Origin: an uncultured Alphaproteobacteria bacterium
GTDB taxonomy: Bacteria > Pseudomonadota > Alphaproteobacteria > Methylaequorales > Methylaequoraceae
Direction of reading: 5' to 3'
Length of the DNA: 64,000 bases
NCBI GenBank assembly: GCA_902550225.1
Contig: CACCYL010000002.1
Location: 84,089 to 148,088, forward strand
Shown: piece after piece, positions 18,628 to 50,958 of the stretch
Layout: each line of letters opens with the position of its first letter
Position numbering within the stretch: position 1 is the stretch's first letter
Translations under genes and position numbers: made by a program
Notes under the pieces: generated by a model
Databases searched by the model: none
What the model saw: the letters and a program-made list of their open reading frames with translations, nothing else
What the model was told of the DNA's origin: nothing

Positions 18628-19188
18628 TTGACTCGAACTTACATGGAAAACTCGCTCAAAAACATTATTAGAAACTATCAAAATTCTTTTAAAAGGAAAG
18701 TCTACACAAATGAAAATAACGATGTCGACTTATTAATGAACGTTTTTGGTATAACTCCCGATTTAAAGCGAGAAAATCGACAATATTGGGGACGAGAACT
18801 GGGAATGTGCTGGCAACTTTTAGTCATAGAATTATTCAGGAACACAAGAGATGATTTTGGTGCTGCCATAAAAATCGGTTCAGACGAACCCTGTGACCTA
18901 ACTGCCGGAACCTATGCGATTGACACAAAATATAGAATAGGGTCAGGAGACTCTGGTACGTTGAAAAAATTTAAATCTTACGGTCCTAAATTAAAAGAAA
19001 TGGGTTACTCACCAATATTTTTAATAGTTAGAGAAGATAACTTACCTGCGGCGATTACTGCTTGTCGAGTTGGTGGTTGGAGGGTATTAACCGGGAAAGA
19101 TACTTTTAAATTTATCAGAGAATTTACCAATTTTGATCTGGAGCAGTTTCTGCTCGACAATCGTGAAAATTTCAACGTTGAACGTTAA
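18628..19188 (+). CDS. type II restriction endonuclease candidate (PD-(D/E)xK fold)
   Basis: PCD-x9-DTK motif. The gene is convergent with the methyltransferase and overlaps it by 4 nt tail to tail. GC content is elevated. Confidence 0.55.
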   Translation: MTRTYMENSLKNIIRNYQNSFKRKVYTNENNDVDLLMNVFGITPDLKRENRQYWGRELGMCWQLLVIELFRNTRDDFGAAIKIGSDEPCDLTAGTYAIDTKYRIGSGDSGTLKKFKSYGPKLKEMGYSPIFLIVREDNLPAAITACRVGGWRVLTGKDTFKFIREFTNFDLEQFLLDNRENFNVER

Positions 19189-20078
19189 AAAAGAGAATAA
19201 TTGAGTCTTTCCCTGATTATCTCTACATACTTCTTTTCAATCTCAATTCCAAGATATCCTCTACCTAAATGTTTCGCAGCGAGCAGAGTTGTTCCAGAAC
19301 CAGCAAAAGGATCTATTACCACATTTTGAGTTCCTTCTGGAACAAGTATGCTTACTAATTTTTCCATTAATGATAGAGGTTTTACAGTACAATGCACATT
19401 GAACTCTTCCTTTTTGTCTCTTTGAATATTCTCTAAAATATTTGACTGAAATCCTCCATTCTTTAAAGTTGTATTGAAAACTCCAACTCCGTACTTCATT
19501 AATGTTTGTGAATAATTTTGTTCTAAAGGTTTTTGAACCAAGACAATGCCCTCCCATTCATTCCGAAAACAACTATGCCAACCCTGCCACCGATAATGTT
19601 CCTGGTAACCTTTACGTTTTAACTGAGATGCAGCGTTGTAACCCTTTGGGATGCCACTCGAACGTCGATACACAAGTATATCGCGAGCATAAAAACCTGC
19701 CTTTTCGAGGGCAACTTGGACATGCGCCAGTGTCCGGGTACTGTTAAATACAGCAACGGGACTTCCCGGTTTCAAGATTCTATAAAGTTCTTCTGACCAT
19801 TTCAGACACCACTCCTCATAATCAAGTATGTTTGACCGATTTTTATCATACCATCGCTTATTCCTTACCCCACCAGCAAGACCACTTCCGTAAGGTATGT
19901 TTTTCACTAATGTGTTACTTTTTTTGGACCTACTAATCCTTCGTTCAACTTCCTCAGTATCCCAATTTTTTCCGATAAATTCATAGTTATATGGAGGATC
20001 AGTGATACAAGCAGACACCGTATCAGGTTCAAATTGCTTCATGATCTTGATGCAATCTCCATTAAATATCTTATCCAA
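19185..20078 (-). CDS. DNA methyltransferase, beta-class N6A/N4C (DPPY ... FAGSGTT)
   Basis: Motif IV DPPY is N-terminal and motif I DPFAGSGTT is C-terminal. This is the ParB-less beta-class arrangement, as in M.RsrI and M.PvuII. GC content is markedly higher than in the surroundings. Confidence 0.85.
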   Translation of the reverse strand: MDKIFNGDCIKIMKQFEPDTVSACITDPPYNYEFIGKNWDTEEVERRISRSKKSNTLVKNIPYGSGLAGGVRNKRWYDKNRSNILDYEEWCLKWSEELYRILKPGSPVAVFNSTRTLAHVQVALEKAGFYARDILVYRRSSGIPKGYNAASQLKRKGYQEHYRWQGWHSCFRNEWEGIVLVQKPLEQNYSQTLMKYGVGVFNTTLKNGGFQSNILENIQRDKKEEFNVHCTVKPLSLMEKLVSILVPEGTQNVVIDPFAGSGTTLLAAKHLGRGYLGIEIEKKYVEIIRERLNYSLF

Positions 20079-20750: not shown

Positions 20751-20840
20751 GGAGAGTTGGCAGAGTGGTCGAATGCATCGGTCTTGAAAACCGACAAGGA
20801 TGCAAGTCCTTCTAGGGTTCGAATCCCTAACTCTCCGCCA
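20751..20840 (+). tRNA. tRNA-Ser (anticodon UGA)
   Basis: Cloverleaf folded by hand: acceptor GGAGAGT/ACTCTCC, anticodon stem TCGGT/ACCGA with loop CTTGAAA, a long variable arm, T arm TAGGG-TTCGAAT-CCCTA, discriminator G and an encoded CCA. Confidence 0.9.
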
Positions 20841-21172
20841 TTTTAGAGGTCATTAGTCGACAATATAGTCGACAACATTAAAAACCCTGTCCTCTGTAAC
20901 GCAGACTCACATTGACTTATAGAAGTTTTATTAGTTGAATAAACTAGTCTTGAAAACCGGCAAAGATGCAAGTCTTTCCAGGGTTCGAATCCCTGACTCT
21001 CCGCCACTTTTGGGGTCATTAGTCGACAACATAGTCGACAACACTAAAAACTCTATCCTCTGAAAGACAGACTCACATTGATTTGTAGAAAATATATTAG
21101 TTGAATAATCTGGTCTTGAAAACCGGCAAGGATGCAAGTCCTTCCAGGGTTCGAATCCCTGTCTCTCCGCCA
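20781..21172 (+). repeat. 166-bp tandem repeat (about 2.4 units). Each unit begins at the tRNA-Ser anticodon loop and contains the tRNA 3' half plus a GTCATTAGTCGACAAYATAGTCGACAACA spacer
   Basis: The period is exactly 166 bp (20781, 20947, 21113). The tRNA 3' halves recur at 20947-21006 and 21113-21172. Confidence 0.85.
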
Positions 21173-24290: not shown

Positions 24291-26102
24291 ATGTCAAAAA
24301 ATATTAGGAATGTAGCTATTATTGCTCATGTAGACCACGGCAAAACCACATTAATTGATTCAATACTTAAGCAAATTGGAATGTTTAGATCCAATGAAGA
24401 GATTGGGGAAAGAATAATGGATAGTGGCGATTTAGAAAAAGAACGTGGTATTACGATTTTGGCAAAGCCTACATCAATTAAGTGGAATGGAGTAAAAATA
24501 AATATAATAGATACACCAGGACATGCAGATTTTGGTGGAGAGGTTGAAAGGATTTTATGTATGGCTGATGGAGTAATTTTATTAACAGATGCCTCAGAAG
24601 GACCAATGCCTCAAACAAAGTTTGTTTTAGGTAAAGCATTATCGCAGGGTTTAAAGCCAATTGTAATCATTAATAAAGTTGATAAAAAAGATAGTCGTGC
24701 AGATGTCGTTTTAGACGAAGTGTTTGATCTTTTTGTTACTCTAAATGCAAATGAGGATCAGCTTGATTTTCCAATACTATACGCCTCTGGAAAAAATGGT
24801 TGGTGTGTGAATGATCTCAAAGATAAAAAAGAAAATTTGCACCCTCTTCTCAATTTAATAATAGAGCATGTGCCTCCTCCAAAAATTAATTCAGAAACAT
24901 CTTTTTCATTTCTAGCAACCCTTCTCTCTTACGATACTTATGTTGGTAGATGTTTAATAGGAAAAGTTGAAAGTGGGAATGCCGAAGTTAATAAAATTGT
25001 TAAGGCAATAAATCTAAATCAAAAACTTGTAGAAAAAGGCAAATTAACAAAATTATTTTCTTTTGAGGGAAATAAAAGAATTCCTGTTAATGAAATTGTT
25101 GCAGGTGATATAGCTTGTATTGCTGGTTTAACTAATGCTTCAGTTTCAGATACAATTTGTGATAATTTAGTCTCTAAACCCATAAAATCGTCTCCGATAG
25201 ATCCCCCAACTATGTCAATAACCATTACTGTTAATAACTCACCTTTTGCTGGGCAGGAGGGCAAAAAAGTGACTTCTAATAATATTAGAGAAAGGCTTTT
25301 GGCAGAAGCTGAAACAAATGTGGCAATTACTTTTAGTGAAAATGAAAATAAAGATGCTTTTGAAATTGGCGGTAGAGGCGAACTACAATTGGGAGTTTTG
25401 ATCGAAACTATGCGAAGAGAAGGTTTTGAATTATCAGTTTCTAGACCAAAAGTATTATTTAAAACAGAAAAAAATATCAAATTAGAACCAGTTGAAGAGG
25501 TTGTAATTGATGTTGATGAAAGTTTTTCAAGCACAGTGATTAGCTCAATGAATAATAGAAAATCAGAAATGATCGATATGAAAACTTCCTCAGCAAAGAC
25601 TCGTATTATCTTTAAGTCACCTTCAAGGGGACTAATAGGTTATCAAAGTCAATTCTTAACAGAAACAAAAGGAACAGGTATTCTGAATAGAATATTTCAT
25701 GCTTATGAACCATTTAAAGGAGAGTTTAAAGAAAAAAGAAATGGTTCCTTAATATCAACTGAGACAGGTCAAGCAGTTGCATATGCAATCTTTAATCTGC
25801 AAGATAGAGGAGTAATGTACATCAAACCGCAAACCAAAGTATACACTGGAATGGTAGTTGGTGAGCATAATAAAGAAAATGATCTTGAAATTAATGTTTT
25901 AAAAGGAAAACAACTTACTAATGTTAGAGCATCAGGTTCAGATAAAGCTGTTACTTTGGTACCACCAGTTAAGATGACATTAGAGCAGATGATTTCTTTT
26001 ATAAGAGATGATGAATTACTTGAGGTAACACCTATGAACCTAAGACTTAGAAAAAAATATCTTGATTCCAATGAAAGAAAGCGTGAAAAAAAATTAAATT
26101 AA
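24291..26102 (+). CDS. typA: translational GTPase TypA/BipA
   Basis: AHVDHGKTT G1 motif, DTPGH G3 motif and NKVD G4 motif, with EF-G-like domain organisation. Confidence 0.92.
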   Translation: MSKNIRNVAIIAHVDHGKTTLIDSILKQIGMFRSNEEIGERIMDSGDLEKERGITILAKPTSIKWNGVKINIIDTPGHADFGGEVERILCMADGVILLTDASEGPMPQTKFVLGKALSQGLKPIVIINKVDKKDSRADVVLDEVFDLFVTLNANEDQLDFPILYASGKNGWCVNDLKDKKENLHPLLNLIIEHVPPPKINSETSFSFLATLLSYDTYVGRCLIGKVESGNAEVNKIVKAINLNQKLVEKGKLTKLFSFEGNKRIPVNEIVAGDIACIAGLTNASVSDTICDNLVSKPIKSSPIDPPTMSITITVNNSPFAGQEGKKVTSNNIRERLLAEAETNVAITFSENENKDAFEIGGRGELQLGVLIETMRREGFELSVSRPKVLFKTEKNIKLEPVEEVVIDVDESFSSTVISSMNNRKSEMIDMKTSSAKTRIIFKSPSRGLIGYQSQFLTETKGTGILNRIFHAYEPFKGEFKEKRNGSLISTETGQAVAYAIFNLQDRGVMYIKPQTKVYTGMVVGEHNKENDLEINVLKGKQLTNVRASGSDKAVTLVPPVKMTLEQMISFIRDDELLEVTPMNLRLRKKYLDSNERKREKKLN

Positions 26103-26322
26103 TAAATATTTTACCAAAATAGCATAACCATCTCTATGTCATAAATAATAAAACTAAGTGGTTGTTCAGTAAAACCTATACTTTTTCCTATTACTCTGCC
26201 TGTATAAGAAAGCTTCGGATTCTTGGCTCCTTTGGATCAAAATTTGGTAGTCTTTACTTCTAATTTTATCCAAAAAAAATATCGACTTAGTATAGTTTAA
26301 TGCATCGATTTGCTCTGATTTT

Positions 26323-27357
26323 TTACACACGCCAAACTGTAACACCACCTTGTCTATCCAATCCAGCAAGTGCTTTATCATCTTGACGCCAATATAATTT
26401 TGAAACAGAATCACTTACACTAGTTTCACTTAATCCACTTTCTTCATTTTCAGATTTTAAGTCCCAAAGTACTACAACACCATCCCTTGATCCTGAAGCT
26501 AAATTCATACCACGATTTGAAAAAGCTAGTGATGTAATTGGTTTAGTGTGAAGTTTTAACGATAAAGGAGATGTACCCTCAGGCCCATTGCCTTTGAAAC
26601 TCCAAACTGTTACCTCTTCACTTCCCCCTGTGGCCAAGTAGCTTCCAGTTTCGTCAAAAGACAAAGCTGAGGGTTTTAGTGGATATCCAGACATCATTGA
26701 ATCTTGCTCTGTTGATCTGCGCCAAAAATGAATTGTATTATCTTGGCTTCCACATACGACTATGTCGCTGTTTGGGCTTAATACCATTGAAACTAAAGAC
26801 CCTTTCCATTCTAATTTCTGCTTTATTTTTCCTGAAATACCATCAAAAAAGGAAACACGCCCATAGCATGTTGTAGCTAGTTCTTTTTCGATGGACCAAG
26901 CTAAATTACTTACAGTACTATTATGACTGTCAGATTGCCACATTTCATTACCCTCTTTGGTGTATACATAAATGGTTCGAGAGCAAGAAAACGCCAGCAT
27001 TTCTCCATCTTGTGACCACGATAAATTTTCTATCCAACCATCACCCAAATCAATGACTTTTTCCTTTTTTTTTTGTTGAGCATTCCAAATAATAACCTTT
27101 CCATCCTGACCTCCTGTTGCGAACCTATCAATTAATGGATGGATTGCTGTTGAAAGAATACCACCTTCATGAACTTGTCCTTGAGACCATTTCATTTTAC
27201 CAGATGTACCATCAAAGACATATATCCCTCCAGCAGCATCACAAATTATGAGAGCCTCACCATTAAAGTTCCAACCCCCAGAAATAGCGTAATCATTTAC
27301 ATAGGCTTTCCAACCACTTCTGAGAATCTTTTGGGGTTGTGTTTCCATTATACTCAT
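26323..27357 (-). CDS. WD40-repeat beta-propeller protein
   Basis: Seven WD-like blades ending in W/D dipeptides (WNAQ, WRRS, WDLK, WRV). There is a 4-nt ATGA overlap with the upstream COG0523 gene. Confidence 0.75.
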   Translation of the reverse strand: MSIMETQPQKILRSGWKAYVNDYAISGGWNFNGEALIICDAAGGIYVFDGTSGKMKWSQGQVHEGGILSTAIHPLIDRFATGGQDGKVIIWNAQQKKKEKVIDLGDGWIENLSWSQDGEMLAFSCSRTIYVYTKEGNEMWQSDSHNSTVSNLAWSIEKELATTCYGRVSFFDGISGKIKQKLEWKGSLVSMVLSPNSDIVVCGSQDNTIHFWRRSTEQDSMMSGYPLKPSALSFDETGSYLATGGSEEVTVWSFKGNGPEGTSPLSLKLHTKPITSLAFSNRGMNLASGSRDGVVVLWDLKSENEESGLSETSVSDSVSKLYWRQDDKALAGLDRQGGVTVWRV

Positions 27358-28706
27358 ACAAGACAGTCCTCAAAATCCCTTCGCATTTCCTTTTCATCAA
27401 GGTTGCGTCCAATAAATACAAGCTGATTTCGTCGAGGTAAACTTCCCCAAGGGCGATCAGGTTTTCCACTAAAAATCATATGAACACCTTGAAAAACGAA
27501 TCTATTTGACTCTCCAGCAATACTTAGAAAACCTTTCATACGAAAAATATCTACTCCTTTGTCTCTAAGAAGTTTAGAAATCCAAGCTTGTAGTTTTTGT
27601 TCATCCAAATCACCGTCTTTTTCAATTGAAAAAGAACCAACTTCGTCATCATGTTCATGTTGTGCTACCCATGTTCTTTCTACTTCGACTGCAACTTCAT
27701 CGTTATTATTTACTTCAATTAACTTCATATTGAATTCTTCTGCTGTATGTTGAGCAAAAAGACCTAATTTTGTATCTTTCTCAATTTCAATATAAAATTC
27801 TTTTGGACCAGACGACTCAAGGTTTAAGTTGACATGTTTTCCTTTAGGAATTATTTCTTCTGGTTTGATTGATTTGGCGTCTTCAGCGTAAAGGCGAACG
27901 CAGCGCTCAGCAGAATTTCTCAAACTTACATCATCTGCATTCTGATCAGGCACAACAACAAGAGACATAGAAGGGTCAGGACCCTCAGACATAATGATTT
28001 TATATTTACCACATTTAGTTGGATAAATTCCCGTCCATTCAAATGGATATTCTGGTTCTAGAAAAGTAGGACGGCGTGTAAGAGCCTGGTCTAAATTAAA
28101 GGCACTTTTATCAAGGACAGAGTTAATTGGAACATTGGCCATTTCACTCCTAATGAATTTTGCCATTTTATTCATTTCCCGAAGACGGGCTTCTAAATTA
28201 TCAAGTTCTGAGTCTTTGACAAGATCTGTTTTGTTAAGAACAATAACGTCTGCAAATGCAATTTGTTCCGTACTTTCGTTACTTCTTCCAAGTTGTTGAT
28301 TTATATGAAATGTATCAACAAGAGTTATAATTCCATCAAGAGAAAACTCTGAACTTATCTCATCATCCATAAAAAAAGTTTGAGCCACTGGACCTGGATC
28401 TGCAAGACCAGTAGTCTCTACAACAACGTAATCAAATTTATCACGCCTTTTCATGAGGTTCCCAAGTACTCTAATTAAATCACCACGAACTGTACAACAA
28501 ATACAACCATTGGCCATCTCAAAGATTTCTTCCTCTGCATTTATTACAAGAGCTTGGTCAATACCAACCTCTCCAAATTCATTTTCAATCACAGCTATTC
28601 GTTTTCCGTGTTGCTCGCTTAAGATACGATTTAGTAAAGTGGTTTTACCTGAACCAAGAAAGCCAGTTAGAATGGTTACAGGAACCTTTTTAGATGAACT
28701 ATCCAT
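27354..28706 (-). CDS. COG0523 (CobW/ZigA/YjiA) metallochaperone GTPase, long form with an extended linker
   Basis: P-loop GFLGSGKTT, the family-defining metal-binding CxCC (GCICCT), and a CobW_C-like C-terminus. There is a Zur box upstream of the operon. Confidence 0.85.
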   Translation of the reverse strand: MDSSSKKVPVTILTGFLGSGKTTLLNRILSEQHGKRIAVIENEFGEVGIDQALVINAEEEIFEMANGCICCTVRGDLIRVLGNLMKRRDKFDYVVVETTGLADPGPVAQTFFMDDEISSEFSLDGIITLVDTFHINQQLGRSNESTEQIAFADVIVLNKTDLVKDSELDNLEARLREMNKMAKFIRSEMANVPINSVLDKSAFNLDQALTRRPTFLEPEYPFEWTGIYPTKCGKYKIIMSEGPDPSMSLVVVPDQNADDVSLRNSAERCVRLYAEDAKSIKPEEIIPKGKHVNLNLESSGPKEFYIEIEKDTKLGLFAQHTAEEFNMKLIEVNNNDEVAVEVERTWVAQHEHDDEVGSFSIEKDGDLDEQKLQAWISKLLRDKGVDIFRMKGFLSIAGESNRFVFQGVHMIFSGKPDRPWGSLPRRNQLVFIGRNLDEKEMRRDFEDCLV

Positions 28707-28887
28707 TTTCTTCTCCATTTAAAATTGTCATTCTTTTTCCTAGATCTCTGCGAAGTTTTGTAATTGCATATGGTTTCATATTTTTCCACTTTTTGCATTC
28801 CTCACGTGTTCTGCCACAACCAATACACCATGAATTTTTCCCTATAAATTTGCATATGTCAATACATGGACTTTTATTACGTTTCAT
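28699..28887 (-). CDS. DUF1289-family small Cys-rich protein (YdhL-like)
   Basis: SPCIDIC-x7-CIGCGRT-x-EE-x2-W matches the DUF1289 pattern. It is the first gene of the Zur-box operon. Confidence 0.65.
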   Translation of the reverse strand: MKRNKSPCIDICKFIGKNSWCIGCGRTREECKKWKNMKPYAITKLRRDLGKRMTILNGEENG

Positions 28888-28918
28888 ATGTAAAGTTCTA
28901 AATTTTATTTTTTATTAT

Positions 28919-28939
28919 TGTAATGTTATAACATAACAC
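28919..28939. promoter_or_regulatory. candidate Zur box (TGTAATGTTATAACATAACAC) in the divergent intergenic region
   Basis: Perfect palindrome TGTTATAACA within GTAATGTTATAACATAAC. Compare the proteobacterial Zur consensus GAAATGTTATAWTATAACATTTC. Confidence 0.55.
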
Positions 28940-28998
28940 TTTATAGTATAGTTTTATTAAATAAAAAAACATTATGTATTCAAAAACTTTATGTAAAC

Positions 28999-29355
28999 AT
29001 GGATTTAATTATTGAAAATCTTTTAGGCCAAGCAGGCGGAAATTTCAAAGGACTTATATTTGGTTTTGTTCACGTTGCGATAATGATTGTAGGTTATTAC
29101 ACTGGTTTTAGCATAAATAAATTTTTAAAGATTCTTTCCAATGGCTATGTTGCTGGGATCTTTGGCGTAGTTTTGTCTCATATCATTGCAGACATAATTG
29201 CTTGCTATTTAGATCCAGACCTTAGAAAAATGATTTTTGGAGTAGTTATTGGTGGTATAATTCCTCTTTTTTTCATACCAATATTAGAAAGATTTGTTGT
29301 AAAAAGTAAACAAAGTTTTTTAGATGAAACAAAAAAAGAGTTAAATAGATCCTGA
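28999..29355 (+). CDS. small membrane protein (3-4 TM), unknown function, downstream of a Zur box
   Basis: Hydrophobic segments, with Gly-rich GVVIGGIIP. Confidence 0.5.
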   Translation: MDLIIENLLGQAGGNFKGLIFGFVHVAIMIVGYYTGFSINKFLKILSNGYVAGIFGVVLSHIIADIIACYLDPDLRKMIFGVVIGGIIPLFFIPILERFVVKSKQSFLDETKKELNRS

Positions 29356-29484
29356 CTAAAGATCTATTATTAAAAAATTTTTTGTTGTTCTTTTCCTTGT
29401 CATTCCTCCAATATTTAGAAGCCACTGACTCTGACTATTTTGAGGCTTGATTTGATAATTTTTTACCAAAATAAATTTATTATT

Positions 29485-29506
29485 GAAATGTTATATTATA
29501 ACACTT
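29485..29506. promoter_or_regulatory. candidate Zur box (GAAATGTTATATTATAACACTT)
   Basis: It matches the Zur consensus GAAATGTTATAATATAACATTTC at 19 of 22 positions, and lies about 50 nt upstream of the second COG0523 gene. Confidence 0.65.
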
Positions 29507-29555
29507 AATATAAAATCCTTACTTTGATTTAGTTAAATTTTGTGGAGAATTTATA

Positions 29556-30770
29556 ATGAAAGTTTTAGATAAAAAACTTCCAGTCACATTATTGTCTGGA
29601 TTTCTTGGTGCTGGAAAAACAACCCTTTTAAATCACATTCTTAATAATCGACAAGGTCTAAAGGTTGCAGTTATTGTGAACGATATGAGTGAAGTAAATA
29701 TTGATGCAAATCTTGTTGAGCGTGGAGGTGGTAACTTATCTCAAACTGAAGAGAAACTTGTAGAAATGAGCAATGGATGTATTTGCTGTACTTTACGTGA
29801 AGATCTTTTAATTCAAGTTAGAGAGTTAGCAAATGAAAATAAATTTGATTACCTTCTTATAGAAAGTACTGGTATCTCTGAACCTTTGCCAGTAGCAACT
29901 ACTTTTGACTTTCGTGATGAGGATGGAGCTAGTTTATCTGACGTAGCAAAACTTGATACAATGGTGACTGTTGTGGATGCTGCAAATCTTATAAAAAATT
30001 ACAGCTCTACTGATTTTTTAAAAGATAAAGGAGAAAGTCTAGAAGATGATGAACGAACACTTGTTGATCTTCTTGTCGAACAGATTGAGTTTGCCAATGT
30101 TATTCTATTGAATAAAATTGATTTAATATCCTCTGAAGAATTAAAAACTGTTAATGCAATTATAAGTGGACTTAACACTGAGGCAAAGGTCTTTGAATGC
30201 TCTCATTCGACCGTGAATCTCAAAGAAGTTGTTGGTACTGGATTGTTTGATCTTAAAAAAGCTTACACTCATCCGTTATGGGCAAAAGAACTTTATAATT
30301 TTAAAGATCATCTTCCTGAAACAGAAGAGTATGGTATCACAAGTTTCGTATATTTAGCCCGCGAACCATTTGATCCATCAAAAATCTATAATTTCTTCAA
30401 TCAAGAATGGCCTGGTGTAATGAGATCAAAAGGCTTTTTTTGGATTTCGAGTCGACCTGAATTTATTGGTGAGGTTTCTCAGGCTGGTGCGTTTGTTCGT
30501 CATCAGGGAATTGGAAGATGGTGGACAACTGTACCGAAAGATCGTTGGCCAGAAGGACCTAATTTTGATGCTTTGATCGATAAATATTGGAATAAAGATT
30601 ATGGTGACCGTCGACAAGAAATAGTTTTTATAGGTTTAAAGTCTGAAATGAGTGAAAAGAACATTCGAGAGAGGCTAGACGCTTGTCTGATTAAGAACTA
30701 TCTTGATGATCCTAGTGCATATCATAAAGCTCTAGATCCCTTTCCAGCATGGTTTAAAAAAGTAGCTTAA
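29556..30770 (+). CDS. COG0523 (CobW/YjiA/ZigA) metallochaperone GTPase, standard length
   Basis: P-loop GFLGAGKTT, CxCC motif GCICCT and a CobW_C domain. Confidence 0.88.
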
Positions 30771-42377: not shown

Positions 42378-42998
42378 TCAAATAACATTATTGAAACTTA
42401 ATAATCGAAATTGTCCACCTTTGTGTTTATTATCCTTTTTGGAAACCATTTCAAGAACACTATAGCTTTGATATGTAACTTCCAATCCAATTGCAAATTC
42501 AGGTTTAATTTGTAAAGCATGAGATAATATTGCCCTTATTGTACCTGCGTGTGTTATGATCAAAATACTCTGCCCAGCTTTTACTTTTAATTTTTTGAGC
42601 CAAATCTCTACTCTTTTACTCTGTTCTAGAAAACTTTCTCCATTTGGCGGTGAAAATTCAGGAGAAATAAATGAAAAATTATGTTTGTCTTCATTTTTAT
42701 TTATAAGTTTCCAAATTTCAGAAATTTTTTTTCCTGACCAATCTCCGAAGCTTTGTTCAACCAGATTGTTTTCTGTAATGATTTTTGAATACTGTTTATA
42801 TCTTGATAAAGCTTCTGCTGTTTGAATTGTTCGTTTTAAAGGACTCACATACCAATCACAATTATCTGGTAAACAAGTTGCCAATTTTTTAATTTTATTA
42901 TTTTTTATAATTGCATCTGGATTATGTTCAGAAAAAAAACCCGTAATTTGTTTTACAGGTGCATGCCGTATTAAAAATAATTTCGACGGTTTAATCAA
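42378..42998 (-). CDS. cobC: alpha-ribazole phosphatase (histidine phosphatase family)
   Basis: RHG-type motif (LIRHAP) and a catalytic His (ITHAGT). It is operonic with cobS and cobT. Confidence 0.7.
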   Translation of the reverse strand: MIKPSKLFLIRHAPVKQITGFFSEHNPDAIIKNNKIKKLATCLPDNCDWYVSPLKRTIQTAEALSRYKQYSKIITENNLVEQSFGDWSGKKISEIWKLINKNEDKHNFSFISPEFSPPNGESFLEQSKRVEIWLKKLKVKAGQSILIITHAGTIRAILSHALQIKPEFAIGLEVTYQSYSVLEMVSKKDNKHKGGQFRLLSFNNVI

Positions 42999-43780
42999 TT
43001 TACAACCAGAATCATTATAATATTTCCAAATAAAAACATTATATCTGTTAAGAAAGCGATTGCTCCTAATATGTCTCCGTTAATACCTCCTATGGCCTTT
43101 TTCGATTTTTTTCCAATTAAAAGTATTGTTAAGGTCATTAAGATTATGCCGAATAATATTCCATAGATATCTAACACAAACAATGTAGGTAATATCCAAG
43201 TTAAAGTAGCTATAAATAAACACTTATTTGAAATTTTTCCAACTATACTCGCTGTTTTTGCAAACTCTGAATTATTGAATAAGTTTCTTGCTATCATAAT
43301 AGAGAGTTTGCCGGTAGCAAATCCAATGGAAAAAATAGCAACTAATGGATACCCTGACTCGAATAAAGCTAATATTATTCCTAGTTTAAGCAAAATACCT
43401 AATACTAATGACATTACTCCATAGGTTCCAAGGCGACTATCATGAATAATTTTATCAATATTTCTAGGAGAGCCTCCTGCACCGAGGCCGTCTGCAGTAT
43501 CCGCTAATCCATCTTCATGAAAAGCGCCAGTAAGGAGAACACTTAATGTGATAGCTATAACACAAGATAAATAAACAGGAAGTCCCACTTGAATTAGTAT
43601 ATCCCCTGCACCACCAGATAAAATTCCTACTAAAAAACCAACTGATGGAAAAGACCAACTAGCTCTTGTTAAATCTGGTGCTTTTTTTGAGAAATAGGAC
43701 CATTTTACCGGTATTCTAGTAAAGAACATAAGTGTTGCAAAAAAATCCATTACATATTTATTTTTAAGAAGTAAATGCAT
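42995..43780 (-). CDS. cobS: adenosylcobinamide-GDP ribazoletransferase (cobalamin synthase)
   Basis: CobS-family N-terminus (FFATLMFFTRIPV) and polytopic membrane topology. Confidence 0.8.
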   Translation of the reverse strand: MHLLLKNKYVMDFFATLMFFTRIPVKWSYFSKKAPDLTRASWSFPSVGFLVGILSGGAGDILIQVGLPVYLSCVIAITLSVLLTGAFHEDGLADTADGLGAGGSPRNIDKIIHDSRLGTYGVMSLVLGILLKLGIILALFESGYPLVAIFSIGFATGKLSIMIARNLFNNSEFAKTASIVGKISNKCLFIATLTWILPTLFVLDIYGILFGIILMTLTILLIGKKSKKAIGGINGDILGAIAFLTDIMFLFGNIIMILVVN

Positions 43781-43782
43781 AA

Positions 43783-44805
43783 TTAAATTTTTTTACTTAT
43801 CCCTGCTTCTGAAAACGTCGACATTTTGTTGTGAGTGGTCAAAGCTGCTCTTATTATCAAACTTGCTACTACTGCTCCGCTTCCCTCACCAAGTCTCATG
43901 TTTAAGTTAAGTATAGGCTTTTTTTTAAGATGAGAAATTACTCCTGAATGACCTGGTTCAGAAGATTGGTGAGAAATTAAACAATGATCCAATATATTCT
44001 TTTTAAAAAGAGTTAGAGTAGCAGCAGATACAGTTGTAATAAAACCATCCAATAAAACAGGTATACCTTTGACCCTTGCTGCGATTACTGATCCTGCAAT
44101 TGCTGCCATTTCTCTTCCACCAAATGCCTCAAAGATTTTACCAACAGTTTTAAAATTCTTACCATGTAACTTCAATCCACTCTTAATAATAGAAATTTTA
44201 TGTTTAAGTTTTTGTTTAGAAATGCCCGTACCTAAACCTGTCCATTTTTCAACAGATTCATTAAAAAGTGCGCATGAAATAGCAGTTGCTGCTGAGGTAT
44301 TAGATATACCCATTTCTCCCAATATTAACAAATCACAATCTTTTGAAACAGAATCAAATCCTAATTGCATTGCTTCAATTATCTCGCTTTGTTCCATTGC
44401 TTTTTCTTTTGAAAAATCCTTAGTAGGTGTTTCAAGCTTTATTGGAATAACTGATAATTTTACTTTAGCTAAATTACATAGTTGGTTAATTGCAGCTCCT
44501 CCATTTTTAAAGTTAGCAACCATTTGCTTTGTTACTTCTGCAGGATAAGCAGACACTTTTTTATTTGCTACACCATGATTAGCAGCATAAATGATGCATT
44601 GAAAACTATCCATTTTAGGTTTTTTTCTTTTTTGCCAACCAGCCATCCAAATAGCATAATCTTCTAATCGACCTAAACTCCCAATTGGTTTTGTAAGTTT
44701 ATTTTGATGTTTTCTAGCCAAATTAGCATAATATTCATGGAACGATTTAAGTGGGACTTTGCCATTATTATTTAGCAAAATTTTAATAATATTATCATTA
44801 GACAT
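43783..44805 (-). CDS. cobT: nicotinate-nucleotide--dimethylbenzimidazole phosphoribosyltransferase
   Basis: CobT signature (GEMGISNTSAATAI, GEGSGA). Confidence 0.85.
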   Translation of the reverse strand: MSNDNIIKILLNNNGKVPLKSFHEYYANLARKHQNKLTKPIGSLGRLEDYAIWMAGWQKRKKPKMDSFQCIIYAANHGVANKKVSAYPAEVTKQMVANFKNGGAAINQLCNLAKVKLSVIPIKLETPTKDFSKEKAMEQSEIIEAMQLGFDSVSKDCDLLILGEMGISNTSAATAISCALFNESVEKWTGLGTGISKQKLKHKISIIKSGLKLHGKNFKTVGKIFEAFGGREMAAIAGSVIAARVKGIPVLLDGFITTVSAATLTLFKKNILDHCLISHQSSEPGHSGVISHLKKKPILNLNMRLGEGSGAVVASLIIRAALTTHNKMSTFSEAGISKKI

Positions 44806-46114: not shown

Positions 46115-46498
46115 TTAGTAAAAAATTAAGTCAGCTAAAAAAGCAAAGAAAAAACCTGTGATATAAACTACAAACGAAAAAGTCAATATAACGGAATTTG
46201 TTGACCTTAATTTCAAACATATTTTAGCTTCTGCTGGGTTTGTTGGACATGAAGCATTATTTCTTCTCCATGCCATATAACATGATAAAGCCAACATAAA
46301 ACCTGCTAATATAAAGACATATAATTTATATTTTGATAGAACAACAATCCACGGAAATATTGATACAATGCTAATTAAAGTTGTACCCAATCCAACAGTC
46401 ACAAGCAGAGCTGGTAAAGCACAACAAACTAGCGTACTTAAACTTGTAAATAAACTTAATATTGGTGCAAACAATTCTTTATAGAAATTATTTAACAT
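46115..46498 (-). CDS. MerT-like metal-transport inner membrane protein
   Basis: Three TM helices with a vicinal Cys pair in TM1 (LVCCALPALL) and a second Cys pair in the cytoplasmic loop (SCP...ICL), which is the MerT topology. Confidence 0.55.
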   Translation of the reverse strand: MLNNFYKELFAPILSLFTSLSTLVCCALPALLVTVGLGTTLISIVSIFPWIVVLSKYKLYVFILAGFMLALSCYMAWRRNNASCPTNPAEAKICLKLRSTNSVILTFSFVVYITGFFFAFLADLIFY

Positions 46499-46799
46499 TT
46501 TTTATTTCTCTGACGTCATAACCAGAATCCTTAATCATTTCAGTGATTTTTTCATAACTTAATTTTTGATTTTCTTTAAAATTAATAGTAATCAACATAT
46601 TTTGTAAATTTACTTTTATACCTGCAACTGATTTTTGTTTTGAAAATATTTTTTCAATTGAACGAGCACAAAAATCACACACAAGTCCATTAACGTATAC
46701 GTACAAAATATCACCATTGTATTGTTCATCCGATAGAATTTTACTGCTGTTAAACAATACAAATTGTAAAATAAACAAATAGATAATAATTTTTTTCAT
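46488..46799 (-). CDS. periplasmic heavy-metal-associated (HMA) domain protein, MerP/CopZ-like
   Basis: Signal peptide MKKIIIYLFILQFVLFNSS and the HMA motif GLVCDFC. The start is taken at the internal ATG at 46799. Confidence 0.6.
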   Translation of the reverse strand: MKKIIIYLFILQFVLFNSSKILSDEQYNGDILYVYVNGLVCDFCARSIEKIFSKQKSVAGIKVNLQNMLITINFKENQKLSYEKITEMIKDSGYDVREIKNVK

Positions 46800-46809
46800 T
46801 TTTGCTCCT

Positions 46810-47457: not shown

Positions 47458-47520
47458 CTTTTCTCCTAATAATCAGAAATAAATTCAAGACAAACTTTGT
47501 CTCAAAACTTTGAAATAAAA

Positions 47521-47856
47521 TTAGGAAAAAAGTTTTGGCGGGGGTGGTCTTAGTAAAGGGTTTAGGGAATCAAATGTAAACGTTAAGTTATCAAAAAAAG
47601 AATTAGCGATTTGAGCATCTAAAATATAGTCAACTTGAAATGTATTTATTTGAGTATAATAACACTCACAATTAAAACATACGTCTTCAACATCATTTGA
47701 TTGAGAATGACATGATTTGTTAGAGTGAGCATTATTTGTTTCATTAAGTTGAGAATATTTTTTATCTAAACAATACGAAATAACTTTAGCTGAGATCGTC
47801 AAACTAGACAGACTAAATATTAAAACACTTAAAATAAAAAATTTTACGTGACTCAT
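47521..47856 (-). CDS. small secreted Cys/His-rich protein
   Basis: Signal peptide followed by CHSQSNDVEDVCFNCECYY and a PPPP tail. It is divergent from the Zur-box promoter. Confidence 0.45.
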   Translation of the reverse strand: MSHVKFFILSVLIFSLSSLTISAKVISYCLDKKYSQLNETNNAHSNKSCHSQSNDVEDVCFNCECYYTQINTFQVDYILDAQIANSFFDNLTFTFDSLNPLLRPPPPKLFS

Positions 47857-47909: not shown

Positions 47910-47941
47910 TTGACATAGAACAAAGTGTTATAATATAACAT
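47910..47941 (+). promoter_or_regulatory. sigma70-like promoter (TTGACA -35, TAATAT -10) overlapping a Zur box (GTGTTATAATATAACAT)
   Basis: TTGACA at 47910-47915, then a 15-nt spacer and TAATAT at 47931-47936, which lies inside the box. The palindrome TGTTATAATATAACA at 47927-47941 overlaps the -10 and sits 36 nt upstream of the TBDT start codon. Confidence 0.65.
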
Positions 47942-47976
47942 AAATTAATATCAACATCTTATTTAATGGAAAATCA

Positions 47977-49941
47977 ATGTATAAAATAGTTACCTTCGTC
48001 TTGACTGTATTACTTGTAGCTAATGTAAACGCTGAAAAGTTAGAATCTATATTTGTTGCACCTGATGTATTTATAACATCTAAAATTAAGCCGAGTACTG
48101 AATATGAAAGTGATAGGGGTAATATTTTATATGATTCTCATGAACTAGAAAAAAGCAGACAATACTCTATTGGTCAGATGCTCAAAGATTTACCAGGAAT
48201 TGCTTCACAAGGTCTTGGTAACGCTTCACGTCCAATAATCAGGGGTCTTGGTAATTCGCGAGTTAAAATTTTACAAAACAGTTCTTCACTCGGTGATGTT
48301 TCCGAATTTGGTGAGGATCATATTGTTGGATATGATCCATTATTAATTGATAAAATAGAAATTATTAAGGGGCCCGGTACGTTACTTTATGGAAACAATG
48401 GTTTTGCTGGAGTTGTAAATATTATAAACCCTTTAATTGCAGTAGATAAGCCTCTTTCTGACGAAAACGTCCAATTAGGTTTTGGATACAAGACCTCAGG
48501 TGGAGAGTTGGGAACAGCATTAAAACTTGGTAAATCTGTGGACAATTTTACTGTTAGAGGTTCTGGAAGTTTTGTAAGTGCAGGACCTTACGATTTAGCA
48601 AATGTTTCAACTAAGCAAGCAAATTCATCAAAGTTCATGACATCTGGTGGCGTTGGAATAACATACAATGATGGTCAGAACCATTTTGGAGTTTCTTTGG
48701 ACAAACTTGAAGCTGTATATCAAAATCCTGGTCCTGAAGGTGAAGAAAATATGACATCGCTTAATCCTACAAGAAATACAATAAATTTTGATTCTTCACT
48801 TGCATTAAATTATTTAATCTTTGAAAAGTTTAACCTAGAAGGCACTGTTTCTGAATATAATCATGCTGAAAGAACAGGCGATGGGAACAATCATAATATA
48901 ACATTTTTCAATGATATATATGAAATAAAAACATCACTGAATCACAAATCTCTATTCAATCAAAATGAAGAAGGATTAATAGGTTTTCATTTTATGAATA
49001 AAAATCAAGGTGCAACAGGAGCTGAGGAAGGTCATTTAACTCCAACGAAGACCAATAGTTTTGCTTTATTTGCTCTCGAAAAATTAAAATTTGATTTATT
49101 TGATTTAGATCTTGGTGGTCGAATTGAATCTGTAAATTTGAAAACAACACAGCATGAGCAAGGTTTTTTCCCTGCTGCATTTTCTTCCACTGTCAAAAGA
49201 GAAATCATTCCAAACAATAGTGTATTTTTAGGTTTTGATTTTACACAAAGAGCACCGAATGCTGTCGAACTATTCGCAGACGGTCCTCACCACGCTCTTG
49301 AAAATGTTGAGACAGGTAACGTGAACTTAGAAAAAGAGAGTTCTTACAATGTATCACTTGGATATAATTATGATGAAAATCTAAATAAATTAAAAATTGA
49401 AGCTTATTATAACTACATTAATGATTTTATTGCTGCAGATAGAAACGGTAATACTCAAAACGTTGAAGGTGAAGATTTTAATGTTGTTATTCACGATCAA
49501 TATAATGCATTATTTACTGGAGTAGAATTAACTGGTCAGTATGGCATAACGAAATTGGATGATTTTGATTTCCTTGCTAATTTTGTAGGGGAATTTTTGA
49601 AGGGTTACAGAACATCCAATGACAAGGCTATAACTAGAATTCCACAATCAAAAGTAAATGTTGGTTTACAACTCATTAATGAGGAATGGGATACTAATCT
49701 TAAATATTATCATTATTTTGATAAAGAATTCACAGGTCCCTTTTATACAAGAACAGGTGGTCACTCAAGATTAGATTTTGATCTCACAAAAGATTTCATG
49801 TACTCAGATTTATCTGGCCATGCAATGTTTAGTGTAACCAATCTTCTGAATACAGTTGGTCGTGATCATCTTGAGGCAAAAAAGGGCCAAGTTCAATTAC
49901 CCGGTAGGAGTTTTAATTTTAATTTAAAGCTATTCTATTAA
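47977..49941 (+). CDS. TonB-dependent outer-membrane receptor, candidate zinc (ZnuD-like) transporter
   Basis: Signal peptide, plug region, and a 22-strand barrel ending in aromatic residues (LKLFY). A Zur box lies in its promoter. Confidence 0.8.
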   Translation: MYKIVTFVLTVLLVANVNAEKLESIFVAPDVFITSKIKPSTEYESDRGNILYDSHELEKSRQYSIGQMLKDLPGIASQGLGNASRPIIRGLGNSRVKILQNSSSLGDVSEFGEDHIVGYDPLLIDKIEIIKGPGTLLYGNNGFAGVVNIINPLIAVDKPLSDENVQLGFGYKTSGGELGTALKLGKSVDNFTVRGSGSFVSAGPYDLANVSTKQANSSKFMTSGGVGITYNDGQNHFGVSLDKLEAVYQNPGPEGEENMTSLNPTRNTINFDSSLALNYLIFEKFNLEGTVSEYNHAERTGDGNNHNITFFNDIYEIKTSLNHKSLFNQNEEGLIGFHFMNKNQGATGAEEGHLTPTKTNSFALFALEKLKFDLFDLDLGGRIESVNLKTTQHEQGFFPAAFSSTVKREIIPNNSVFLGFDFTQRAPNAVELFADGPHHALENVETGNVNLEKESSYNVSLGYNYDENLNKLKIEAYYNYINDFIAADRNGNTQNVEGEDFNVVIHDQYNALFTGVELTGQYGITKLDDFDFLANFVGEFLKGYRTSNDKAITRIPQSKVNVGLQLINEEWDTNLKYYHYFDKEFTGPFYTRTGGHSRLDFDLTKDFMYSDLSGHAMFSVTNLLNTVGRDHLEAKKGQVQLPGRSFNFNLKLFY

Positions 49942-49947
49942 TAAAAT

Positions 49948-50313
49948 ATGTTTAAGTATTACTCTTCATACACATTGTTATGGATAGGCCTAACACATCT
50001 GTTGTGCTGTGGTTTGCCTTTGACGTTATCATTTGTTTCATTATCTTCAAATGCATTATTTTTGGACTCACTCCTTTTAAACTCTGAATTATTAGAAGCT
50101 GCTGAACCATATCTCTTTGCAATTACGACGCTTATATTTTTATTAATAATTTCTTTTGAGATCTACAATAAAAAAATAAAGTGCCAAGATGATGAATGTG
50201 ATACTGAAAAAGAATGCAGTACGACCACTAAAAAAATTAAGACCAATCTTATTCTCGCAAGTATTCTTTATACTCTCAATAGTTCAATCTTTTTATCAGA
50301 AGTTATCCTCTGA
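49948..50313 (+). CDS. second MerT-like small membrane protein
   Basis: TM1 with LLCCGLPL and a loop bearing KCQDDECDTEKEC, the same architecture as the protein at 46115. Confidence 0.5.
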   Translation: MFKYYSSYTLLWIGLTHLLCCGLPLTLSFVSLSSNALFLDSLLLNSELLEAAEPYLFAITTLIFLLIISFEIYNKKIKCQDDECDTEKECSTTTKKIKTNLILASILYTLNSSIFLSEVIL

Positions 50314-50316
50314 TTT

Positions 50317-50958
50317 ATGATTTTAAATTGTGAAAATATGAAATCCTTAATGGACTTCAAACATAATAACCATCAATTAGCAATTTTGAATCGTCAAACT
50401 CCCGAGAATTCCAATGTTTTCTTTAGTGAATTAAACATAACTTCTTTTTCAACTTCAGGTTATGTTTCATTAGAGAATAGTTTAAATGACATTAGCAAGC
50501 TTACAGAAGAAAAACTTCCATCAAAAATTAGGAAAAACTTATTTTTTGAAAAATGGTTAAATGATATGAGTGAAATTTGTAAAATGTTTTGTTTATTTCA
50601 AGAAAAAGATAAAATAAGTTTTTGGTTGGGATCCGAGAGAGGTTGTAAACGTTTTCATGTTGATATGGTCCCTTATAGATGTTTAATAACCTATTCCGGA
50701 CAAGGTACAGAATTACTACCTGATAATGCAGCAGACAGGAATGCTTTTATTAGTGGAAAACCAAATGAAAATATAATTAAAGACAGATCAGCGATAAGAT
50801 ATTTAAATAAATGGGATGTTGCAATTTTTCGTGGTGGAAAACATGGAATTTTACATCGAACTCCAGAGTCAGCACTAAATGATAGATCTTCAATTTTAAT
50901 GAGGCTTGATGATTCTTCTTTTTTAGAGCAAATAGAAAAAATAAACAATGTTAATTAA
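50317..50958 (+). CDS. hypothetical cytoplasmic protein (possibly DUF1826-like)
   Basis: No clear motif. The start codon lies 4 nt after the stop of the upstream ORF. Confidence 0.45.
   Translation: MILNCENMKSLMDFKHNNHQLAILNRQTPENSNVFFSELNITSFSTSGYVSLENSLNDISKLTEEKLPSKIRKNLFFEKWLNDMSEICKMFCLFQEKDKISFWLGSERGCKRFHVDMVPYRCLITYSGQGTELLPDNAADRNAFISGKPNENIIKDRSAIRYLNKWDVAIFRGGKHGILHRTPESALNDRSSILMRLDDSSFLEQIEKINNVN

Follow-up and report, generated by a model that had tools for sequence, protein, structure and literature searches.

Introduction

In Caulobacter crescentus, gel-shift binding of purified Zur has been reported at zrpW-zrpX (AATGTTACTTTATAACACG) and znuK (GATGTTATATCATAACAAT) (PMC4176598). 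Zur sites have also been predicted before COG0523-5-WD40 operons of Bradyrhizobium, Nitrobacter, Rhodopseudomonas and Prochlorococcus; Bradyrhizobium bll7771-7768, Prochlorococcus PMM1031-1033 and Anabaena all1751 are given as WD40 examples of subgroup 5 (Haas et al. 2009), and all1751 belongs to the Anabaena Zur regulon (PMC6103462). According to Haas et al. (2009), most eukaryotic COG0523 proteins fall in the same subgroup as these WD40-linked bacterial ones. The eukaryotic COG0523 chaperone ZNG1 loads zinc into METAP1; review literature names YjiA as its closest bacterial homologue and states that the N-terminal CPxLxP client-binding motif of ZNG1 is absent from bacterial homologues. Two COG0523 paralogs are reported in the Zur regulon of Agrobacterium and three each in those of Cupriavidus and Anabaena (PMC6103462), and Additional file 5 of Haas et al. 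(2009) holds many further Zur regulons with several COG0523 genes.

Here we describe a 64-kb stretch (the window) of a low-GC (30% GC) marine alphaproteobacterium. It carries a real Zur-type zinc-starvation regulon with two COG0523 GTPases, of a kind that is already well known; the first-pass annotation had called it "unusually elaborate," a description that is not supported, since two or three COG0523 paralogs per Zur regulon are common, as in the three genera named above. What is new is that the block of WD40, COG0523, DUF1289 and membrane-protein genes is a 3,352-bp cassette between 17-nt direct repeats.

Results

Three Zur-type boxes

The boxes share the inverted repeat ATGTTAT-N3-ATAACAT, and all three are intergenic:

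28918..28939, no strand: box 1, TTGTAATGTTATAACATAACAC, in a divergent intergenic region; two overlapping Zur-type 17-mers
29485..29507, no strand: box 2, GAAATGTTATATTATAACACTTA; matrix score 24.6 bits
47922..47944, no strand: box 3, AAAGTGTTATAATATAACATAAA; matrix score 21.6 bits

A weight matrix trained on published Zur sites only (Haas et al. 2009, Additional file 5) placed its top four sites in the window (24.6, 23.3, 21.6 and 19.1 bits) within these boxes. The next-best site elsewhere in the window reached 6.2 bits, leaving a gap of about 13 bits, and the maximum in 200 random Markov-1 windows scored with the same matrix had a mean of 10.3 bits (sd 2.5). The 17-mers of box 1 lie at 28918-28934 (23.3 bits) and 28923-28939 (19.1 bits) and include the 10-nt palindrome TGTTATAACA at 28924-28933. 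The annotated site is really these two overlapping 17-mers, with the 18-mer quoted for it starting at 28920 rather than 28919. Box 2, also found at the annotated site, departs from the 23-mer consensus at 2 positions (among the first 22, 21 agree, not the 19 first counted), a match seen in 0 of 100 shuffles; its last base is 48 nt from the ATG at 29556, and TTGAAA and TAATAT hexamers flank it (29483-29511). Box 3, already proposed at a TonB-dependent receptor gene, has as its core a perfect 15-nt palindrome, TGTTATAATATAACA (47926-47940), 37 nt 5′ of the receptor ORF. TTGACA occurs at 47910-47915, 10 nt upstream of box 3; a promoter scan there returned no site, and promoter hexamers around the boxes were not enriched (6 against 6.4 expected from shuffles).

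A ZigA/YciC-type GTPase behind box 2

29556..30770, plus: ZigA/YciC-type COG0523 GTPase, 404 aa, with GCICC (Pfam, NCBIfam)

This protein matches Pfam cobW (8.1e-56) and CobW_C (6.4e-21) and fits the NCBIfam ZigA model end to end at 585.2 bits, just below the NCBI cutoff of 600. We surveyed the best 80 of its 597 confirmed alphaproteobacterial matches (58-95% identity), counting as a box any site that reached 12 of 14 or more and lay no farther than 150 nt upstream. Among these 80 loci, most of them at 60-70% GC, 52 have a box 5′ of the orthologue, including 44 of the 66 with at least 55% GC; boxes number 4.34 per kb in this upstream stretch and 0.031 per kb elsewhere, a roughly 140-fold difference. 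A Zur homologue adjoins the orthologous GTPase in 17 of the 80, and one locus, whose GTPase is 78% identical, has the order zur-DUF1826, box, GTPase. In another the site is identical to the one given for "yciC" (RL3179) of Rhizobium leguminosarum among the Zur sites in Additional file 5 of Haas et al. (2009). The overlapping double 17-mer of box 1 recurs 5′ of the ZigA-like gene in Bradyrhizobium-labelled loci.

Close relatives point the same way. Box 2 is identical in loci L081-L086, L091 and L092; in the comparison with L081-L086 this is so despite a 100-nt indel in the flanks. At the position of box 1 relatives carry TTGAAATGTTATAATATAACAG; the sequence differs between the window and L081-L086, yet stays on consensus, while the remaining spacer, in its distal half, has diverged.

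At 30% GC, AT-rich palindromes might arise by chance, and the short cores are indeed weak by themselves: TGTTATAACA occurs in 12% of shuffles, and GTTA-N5-TAAC is found 3 times against 1.8 expected, neither being significant. The longer Zur motif, unlike these cores, is significant. Its full-length matrix scores lie far beyond the random distribution, every box is intergenic and upstream of zinc-linked genes, and the box is conserved in genomes of 60-70% GC. The matrix scores and the orthologue survey thus refute a chance origin, to which we give practically no credence. The annotated claim of Zur-type operators before COG0523 genes, of the class described by Haas and colleagues, is borne out by these scores, by the close likeness of the boxes to the gel-shifted C. 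crescentus sites and by conservation across Alphaproteobacteria.

A WD40-linked GTPase operon at box 1

28699..28887, minus: DUF1289 small four-cysteine protein, 62 aa (Pfam PF06945, E = 3.8e-13)
27354..28718, minus: COG0523 GTPase of a WD40-linked subfamily, 454-aa ORF (Pfam cobW and CobW_C)
26323..27357, minus: WD40 beta-propeller protein, 344 aa, without signal peptide (Pfam WD40/beta-propeller families)
28999..29355, plus: predicted 118-aa membrane protein reading away from box 1, of no recognised family

Box 1 does precede the GTPase operon, as annotated, but not the GTPase directly: on the minus strand the DUF1289 gene comes first, overlapping the GTPase ORF by 20 nt, and on the plus strand the box faces the 118-aa ORF. 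For this ORF Pfam gave sub-threshold hits only (20.4 bits against a required 23.8 for a phage holin family; MntP, E = 0.042) and NCBIfam no match. In L081-L086 and L090 the DUF1289 gene keeps its position, and the 118-aa ORF adjoins the ZigA-like gene there too.

The 454-aa ORF matches cobW (3.5e-62) and CobW_C (2.2e-26), and its start is likely M5 at 28706, giving 450 aa. Both GTPases thus contain the cobW and CobW_C domains and the GCICC of the annotated CxCC motif, together with Walker A GxxGxGKTT, E(T/S)TG and NKxD. They form a COG0523 pair, as annotated, but are not recent paralogs: they belong to different subfamilies, and their 39% identity is confined to the G domain. The WD40-linked subfamily, distinct from the ZigA-like one and widespread, has a conserved beta-sandwich insert of about 130 aa; in the 454-aa ORF it covers residues ~222-352, begins EYPFEW and is followed by HEHD. 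The start of the WD40 gene overlaps the GTPase stop, and in 4 of 4 lineages examined a WD40 gene follows and overlaps the GTPase gene. A cyanobacterium, an acidobacterium and a genome of 5.9 Mb carry this pair. Over its full length the WD40 protein shares 33-34% identity with those after the same GTPase subfamily in the cyanobacterium and the acidobacterium. In other phyla the genes around the WD40-linked GTPase are zinc-related, encoding ZnuA, a TonB-dependent receptor, NicO, metallothionein and an SmtB-like regulator.

One of the GTPases might instead be CobW for cobalamin synthesis, since the window encodes CobT, CobS and a CobC-like phosphatase at 42378-44805 and relatives have these genes no more than 5-8 kb away from the module. 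With TIGR02475, the CobW model, the two proteins reach 203 and 152 bits, below its cutoff of 332, and both lack the His stretch that Haas et al. (2009) saw in every CobW protein they analysed. No cobN adjoins the GTPase genes, the whole window is free of cobalamin riboswitches, and a Zur-type box stands in front of both genes. The low scores and missing His stretch, cobN and riboswitch largely refute a CobW identity, which we regard as highly improbable.

A strain-variable cassette

26105..26121, no strand: left 17-nt direct repeat, AATATTTTACCAAAATA (repeat search and empty-site alignment)
29457..29473, no strand: right 17-nt direct repeat, AATTTTTTACCAAAATA (repeat search and empty-site alignment)

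These repeats (family D6) bound the cassette, which holds the WD40, COG0523, DUF1289 and membrane-protein genes; its junction was set by alignment with the empty sites of L091 and L092. The cassette is missing from contigs encoding an identical ZigA-like protein, so that the second, WD40-linked GTPase is cassette-borne and lacking in sister strains with an identical first GTPase.

The receptor unit behind box 3

47977..49941, plus: TonB-dependent receptor, 654 aa (Pfam Plug and TonB_dep_Rec_b-barrel)
49948..50313, plus: 121-aa membrane ORF with N-terminal LLCCGLP (from translation)
50317..50958, plus: DUF1826 protein, 213 aa (Pfam PF08856, E = 3.2e-24)
47521..47856, minus: secreted ORF of 111 aa, rich in Cys and His, reading divergently from the receptor

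The best named relative of the receptor is the zinc receptor ZnuD (NCBIfam, 217.7 bits), with a score far under the cutoff of 950. The 121-aa ORF has no Pfam or NCBIfam match and is weakly similar to a 127-aa ORF at 46115-46498 (E = 0.002). DUF1826 is divergent beside the ZigA-like orthologue in three of the surveyed loci (L003, L005 and L008), precedes a different COG0523 gene in L080, and is part of the yciC-DUF1826 Zur operons in Additional file 5 of Haas et al. (2009). The 111-aa ORF, which has no family match, is possibly under box 3 as well, judging from position.

Zinc genes and the identity of the regulator

The ORF scan covered all ORFs of at least 100 aa not inside a larger annotated gene. 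It found no znuABC in the 64-kb window and, together with tblastn, no Fur-family gene, zur included; a profile search gave no zur match placeable on a contig of this lineage. Zinc-independent paralogs (ribosomal protein, folE2, dksA2, pyrC2, cam) were absent from the window. The annotated "zinc-sparing" response is thus not supported; the gene content speaks rather for uptake and allocation of zinc.

The boxes could be real but serve another regulator and metal (Fur/Mur-type with iron or manganese; nickel or cobalt), which the GTPases would traffic. No zur is demonstrable in this lineage by window tblastn or profile search, NicO/HoxN-type transporters adjoin the WD40-linked GTPase in other phyla, and Haas et al. 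(2009) state HoxN co-localisation for subgroup 5 and that some COG0523 members serve cobalt (CobW) or iron (the nitrile hydratase activator). We nevertheless consider this unlikely. The boxes fit the Zur matrix and the proteobacterial Zur core GTTA-N5-TAAC, and zur genes adjoin orthologous boxed loci. ZnuA, metallothionein and an SmtB-like regulator adjoin the WD40-linked pair, and DUF1826 with a ZnuD-like receptor is typical of Zur regulons. The boxes also differ from the Fur-box type, GATAATGATAATCATTATC.

Discussion

Directly observed are the sites with their statistical strength and conservation, the families to which the proteins belong and the linkage of the genes in several phyla. Taken together, the three boxes are very probably operators of a Zur-type (Fur-family) zinc-responsive repressor controlling four or five units. 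We infer that Zur is the binder in this organism, that it responds to zinc, which way regulation runs and all that concerns clients. In zinc-replete cells, Zur loaded with zinc would occupy the ATGTTAT-N3-ATAACAT repeats, which overlap the promoter regions, and keep transcription off; under zinc shortage it would come off and the units would be switched on: DUF1289, WD40-linked COG0523 GTPase and WD40; the 118-aa membrane protein; the ZigA/YciC-type GTPase; the receptor, 121-aa membrane protein and DUF1826; and possibly, as a fifth, the divergent minus-strand genes from 47856. The receptor may carry zinc or a zinc complex through the outer membrane. By analogy, both GTPases would hold zinc at CxCC and pass it with GTP hydrolysis to priority client proteins. 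Since they are of different subfamilies, they probably serve different clients, and the WD40 propeller most likely works with the insert-bearing GTPase, as its partner or as its adaptor to clients.

With the C. crescentus Zur regulon (Mazzon et al. 2014; zrpW-zrpX, znuK/L/M, znuGHI), also alphaproteobacterial, the locus shares the operator core, a membrane-protein gene before a COG0523 gene and TonB-dependent receptors under Zur, as predicted here. The window differs in having no ABC importer, and ZrpW has six transmembrane helices whereas the 118-aa ORF appears to have about three, as judged from sequence, with no detectable similarity between the two (tblastn, 80 loci).

The 404-aa protein compares best with COG0523 subfamily 1 (YciC/ZagA of Bacillus subtilis, ZigA of Acinetobacter baumannii): it fits the full-length ZigA model, and with the Zur-regulated members it shares CxCC, a Zur-type box in the promoter region and DUF1826 as a frequent neighbour; its alphaproteobacterial orthologues include loci with an upstream site that matches the yciC ones listed by Haas et al. 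(2009). Unlike those systems, it has no folE2, dksA2 or ribosomal paralogs nearby, scores 15 bits below the equivalog cutoff, and has DUF1826 in the receptor operon rather than beside the GTPase. As for the receptor, ZnuD of Neisseria is its best-scoring named family, at 218 bits against 950 and so outside the NCBI rule. Neisseria ZnuD sits behind a Zur-type box, and so does the receptor here.

The 454-aa GTPase is of the COG0523-5-WD40 type, its equivalence to bll7768 and PMM1033 coming from gene context, not sequence: the same overlapping GTPase-WD40 order lies behind a predicted Zur site (Haas et al. 2009). Unlike those operons, this one starts with DUF1289, lacks znuABC and sapB, and sits on a 3.35-kb strain-variable cassette. 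The available text of Haas et al. (2009) and of two COG0523 reviews contains no mention that we found of the beta-sandwich insert. With CobW both proteins share the COG0523 fold and Pfam domains, each below the CobW cutoff. The likeness to ZNG1 runs through YjiA, whose model fits the 454-aa protein best, and subgroup 5 only; unlike ZNG1, this locus shows no methionine aminopeptidase link.

Two COG0523 GTPases of different subfamilies

Between typA/bipA (24291-26102) and a fasciclin gene in the window, whose GC content is about 30%, there are five genes:

26323-27357, minus strand: WD40 protein, 344 aa; its start overlaps the stop of the neighbouring GTPase
27354-28718, minus strand: WD40-linked COG0523 GTPase, 454 aa (450 aa from M5, the start used in relatives)
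28699-28887, minus strand: DUF1289 protein, 62 aa
28999-29355, plus strand: membrane protein, 118 aa
29556-30770, plus strand: ZigA-like COG0523 GTPase, 404 aa

Both GTPases match Pfam cobW and CobW_C and carry GFLG(S/A)GKTT as Walker A, GCICC, E(T/S)TG and NK(T/I)D; the defining features of COG0523 (G3E GTPase) proteins, including a Glu-containing Walker B, NKxD and CxCC, are thus present in each. Their mutual identity is 39% and is confined to the G domain; they are therefore old paralogs of different subfamilies and not the product of a recent duplication. Against the NCBIfam ZigA equivalog model NF038288, the 404-aa protein scored 585.2 bits (cutoff 600) with the model covered from 1 to 390 of 390, and the 454-aa protein 200 bits over the G domain only. 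The closest model for the latter is YjiA (259 bits, cutoff 361), and it has about 130 additional residues between the G domain and CobW_C, predicted as a confidently modelled extra domain.

We also considered whether either protein could be CobW itself, and rejected this identity: the two proteins scored 203 and 152 bits on TIGR02475 (cutoff 332), neither has a His run, and the window contains neither cobN nor a B12 riboswitch. The window does carry genes for attaching the lower ligand of cobalamin at 42378-44805, namely cobT, cobS and one for a cobC-like phosphatase; their distance from the zinc module is 5-8 kb in relatives, so the gene order has been rearranged.

The insert-bearing GTPase is widespread. 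In an exhaustive search of cluster representatives, many proteins of about 440-490 aa aligned with it over their full length at 33-52% identity. Members recovered by profile search come from Chloroflexi, Cyanobacteria, Acidobacteria, Planctomycetes, Nitrospirota-type bacteria and a eukaryotic alga; they share 53-58% identity with the protein of the window, and PEYPFEW and HxHD are invariant. In the window, the GTPase and WD40 genes form one operon and overlap at the stop of the former, and the same pair recurs in loci L087, L088 and L089, an overlapping WD40 gene of about 350 aa following the GTPase in all three outside contexts examined. The WD40 proteins share 33-34% identity over their full length and have no signal peptide. 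Zinc-related neighbours in these contexts are ZnuA with a TonB-dependent receptor, NicO, and a metallothionein with an SmtB-like regulator. According to the COG0523 survey by Haas et al. 2009, bacterial members of subgroup 5 cluster with WD40, znuABC, HoxN and SapB genes, and Zur sites are predicted for this subgroup in Bradyrhizobium, Nitrobacter, Rhodopseudomonas, Prochlorococcus and several cyanobacteria. Judging from gene context and YjiA-side similarity, the 454-aa GTPase matches subgroup 5.

Of additional note, a reading frame of about 100 aa precedes and overlaps the GTPase-WD40 pair in L088 (4659-4982) and L089 (4718-5020), which belong to two other phyla. The two share T(E/Q)L.C.E.GCPPIETVIA and occupy the position that DUF1289 has in the window; Pfam assigned them to no family.

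Zur-type boxes in three promoter regions

The exact core GTTA-N5-TAAC occurs three times in the window, at the three putative Zur sites:

28918-28939: box 1, upstream of the DUF1289 and WD40-linked GTPase genes
29485-29507: box 2, upstream of the ZigA-like GTPase gene
47922-47944: box 3, upstream of a TonB-dependent receptor gene

All three are intergenic, in promoter regions, and agree with ATGTTATnnnATAACAT at 12-13 of 14 positions. Box 1, TTGTAATGTTATAACATAACAC, consists of two 17-mers overlapping with a shift of 5 nt, an arrangement also seen upstream of the orthologous gene in Bradyrhizobium-labelled loci; on the minus strand, the DUF1289 start is 30 nt away from the beginning of this 22-nt box. 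Box 2 has two mismatches to the 23-mer consensus, a match found in none of 100 shuffles, and the 23-nt site ends 48 nt short of the ZigA-like start. Box 3 contains a perfect 15-nt palindrome (47926-47940), 10 nt after TTGACA and 37 nt before the receptor gene; measured from the end of the whole 23-nt site, the receptor start is 32 nt away. The genes downstream of the boxes encode COG0523 proteins, a ZnuD-like receptor and a DUF1826 protein.

A weight matrix trained solely on the alpha- and gammaproteobacterial sites of Haas et al. 2009 (Additional file 5) placed its top four scores in the window, 24.6, 23.3, 21.6 and 19.1 bits, all at the three boxes, with the fifth at 6.2 bits. The best score per box (21.6-24.6 bits) compares with a training-set median of 20.4, and the maximum in random windows was 10.3 ± 2.5 bits (200 Markov-1 windows). 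The short cores alone were not significant, and promoter hexamers around the boxes were no commoner than in shuffles; the case therefore depends on the full-length motif.

Two smaller observations concern the surroundings of boxes 1 and 2. The 35 nt around box 1 (28911-28945) and box 2 (29476-29510) are direct repeats, 89% identical, which share flanks outside the operator (TTTATTATTG.AATGTTATA...ACACTT.ATA); this likeness suggests a promoter-operator unit that was duplicated or is tightly constrained. An inverted repeat, AATAGATC...GATCTATT, at 29344-29368 lies across the stop of the 118-aa reading frame, is followed by an A/T run and is kept in the close relatives L081-L086. It may act as a weak terminator between that reading frame and the promoter at box 2; the terminator scanner made no call at this repeat.

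Conservation of the boxes and linkage to zur

Scanning the 404-aa protein against one genome per species gave 597 confirmed relatives, the best 80 of which were kept; these are nearly all from Alphaproteobacteria, with 58-95% identity. A box matching at least 12 of 14 positions lies no more than 150 nt upstream of the ZigA-like orthologue in 52 of these best 80 loci, and in 44 of 66 loci with a GC content of at least 55%. Box density is 4.34 per kb in the upstream regions vs 0.031 per kb in the remainder of the 0.9 Mb, an enrichment of about 140-fold. L033 (Rhizobium laguerreae) has the very site that Haas and colleagues list for R. leguminosarum RL3179 "yciC." A Zur homologue adjoins the ZigA-like orthologue in 17 of the best 80 loci, and one of these, L003, which is the nearest relative beyond the genus, has the order zur-DUF1826, box, GTPase.

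In L081-L086, whose proteins are about 94% identical to those of the window, box 2 is unchanged despite a 100-nt indel in the spacer, while box 1 is swapped for another on-consensus form, TTGAAATGTTATAATATAACAG, and the spacer has diverged in its distal half. Predicted operators that stay on consensus amid a diverging spacer are the pattern expected under selection.

Pfam scans found neither zur nor znuABC in the 64-kb window, where Pfam scans and tblastn likewise found no Fur-family or Zur gene, and a zur profile search gave no match attributable to this lineage. Further zur-COG0523 linkage was seen in an unrelated organism (L097 and L098, 2636-4456), where zur is divergent from a COG0523 gene of about 401-405 aa.

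The receptor operon and its divergent neighbours

Behind box 3 stands an operon with the following order:

TonB-dependent receptor
49948-50313: membrane protein, 121 aa
DUF1826 protein

ZnuD is the best-scoring named relative of the receptor, at 217.7 bits to NCBIfam NF038289, far under the cutoff of 950. DUF1826 is regularly found in yciC operons in entries of the table of Haas and colleagues. Among our loci, it adjoins the ZigA-like orthologue in L003, L005 and L008; in L080 it precedes a different COG0523 gene.

The minus strand at 46115-47856, divergent from box 3, carries four short reading frames of metal-related appearance:

secreted Cys/His-rich protein, 111 aa
signal-peptide protein, 215 aa, whose C-terminal ...KRF resembles that of an outer-membrane barrel
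MerP-like secreted protein with an HMA domain and CDFC
membrane protein, 127 aa, with an N-terminal CC motif

The CC motif is common to the 121-aa and 127-aa proteins (E = 0.002). Jointly, these four reading frames and the 121-aa one could make up a set for Mer-like metal uptake controlled from box 3.

A strain-variable cassette

The loci L091 and L092 encode a 404-aa protein identical to that of the window, and in them the typA stop leads directly to box 2. Aligned with these loci, the window has 3,352 bp extra (about 26122-29473), comprising the WD40 gene, the 454-aa GTPase, DUF1289, box 1 and the 118-aa reading frame. This cassette is bounded by 17-nt direct repeats, AATATTTTACCAAAATA (26105-26121) and AATTTTTTACCAAAATA (29457-29473), and the empty site (L091 1540-1590, and L092), which reads ...ATATTTCATGAAAATAAATTTATT..., has one similar repeat copy. 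The cassette is present in L090, a 672-kb contig whose ZigA-like protein is also identical to that of the window, and lacking in L002, whose ZigA-like orthologue is 95% identical. Either insertion or repeat-mediated deletion may account for this distribution.

The host lineage is a very abundant, low-GC marine alphaproteobacterium in which otherwise near-identical strains differ in the cassette. Its presence or absence among strains is therefore a natural experiment that could be correlated, in metagenomes, with dissolved zinc. We can imagine, while considering it unlikely, that DUF1289, the insert-bearing COG0523 protein and the WD40 protein form a self-contained, laterally exchangeable zinc-allocation module, in which the beta-sandwich insert would dock the WD40 propeller as client adaptor or client, and whose presence in strains would track zinc scarcity in surface water. 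If this were true, it would open a testable route to the clients that bacterial COG0523 proteins under Zur control serve.

The zinc module of L083 has an integrase next to it, along with a type I restriction system, so the neighbourhood differs between strains. Elsewhere in the window, tRNA-Ser(TGA) was called twice, 250 nt apart (20751-20840 and 21085-21172), adjoining a DNA methylase gene (19185-20078); Rfam confirms the first call only, and the second overlaps a 101-aa reading frame.

Proposed regulation and comparison with known systems

The first-pass annotation had placed two COG0523 GTPases behind candidate Zur boxes, and Pfam, motifs, matrix scores and conservation all bear this out. 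Its regulon interpretation is sound at the core, the regulon being of a well-described type, and a Zur-type regulon is the best-supported reading of these sequences. We propose that a zinc-loaded Zur-type repressor would occupy the three predicted operators, and that under zinc scarcity the receptor and the two GTPases with their partners would be expressed. By analogy with ZigA, ZagA and ZNG1, the GTPases may serve as chaperones. The same annotation had called the response "unusually elaborate" and "zinc-sparing." The first description lacks support, since two to three COG0523 genes per Zur regulon are ordinary: PMC6103462 gives two for Agrobacterium, three for Cupriavidus and three for Anabaena. 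Nor is the second supported, as Pfam scans found no zinc-independent paralog in the window.

A Zur-type zinc-starvation regulon in an abundant marine alphaproteobacterium is relevant to the trace-metal ecology of the surface ocean, and was already expected from comparative genomics published in 2009. The by-products are more useful: the GTPase-WD40 pair, highly conserved across phyla and first noted 15 years ago; the strain-variable cassette; and DUF1289 with several small Cys-motif membrane or periplasmic proteins, which are drawn into the putative zinc regulon.

The experimental backing is from C. crescentus, a different member of the Alphaproteobacteria. There, purified Zur shifts promoters with AATGTTACTTTATAACACG (zrpW-zrpX, ZrpX being a COG0523 protein) and also a promoter with GATGTTATATCATAACAAT (znuK, a receptor), and the Zur operators overlap the -35 and -10 elements or sit between them (PMC4176598).
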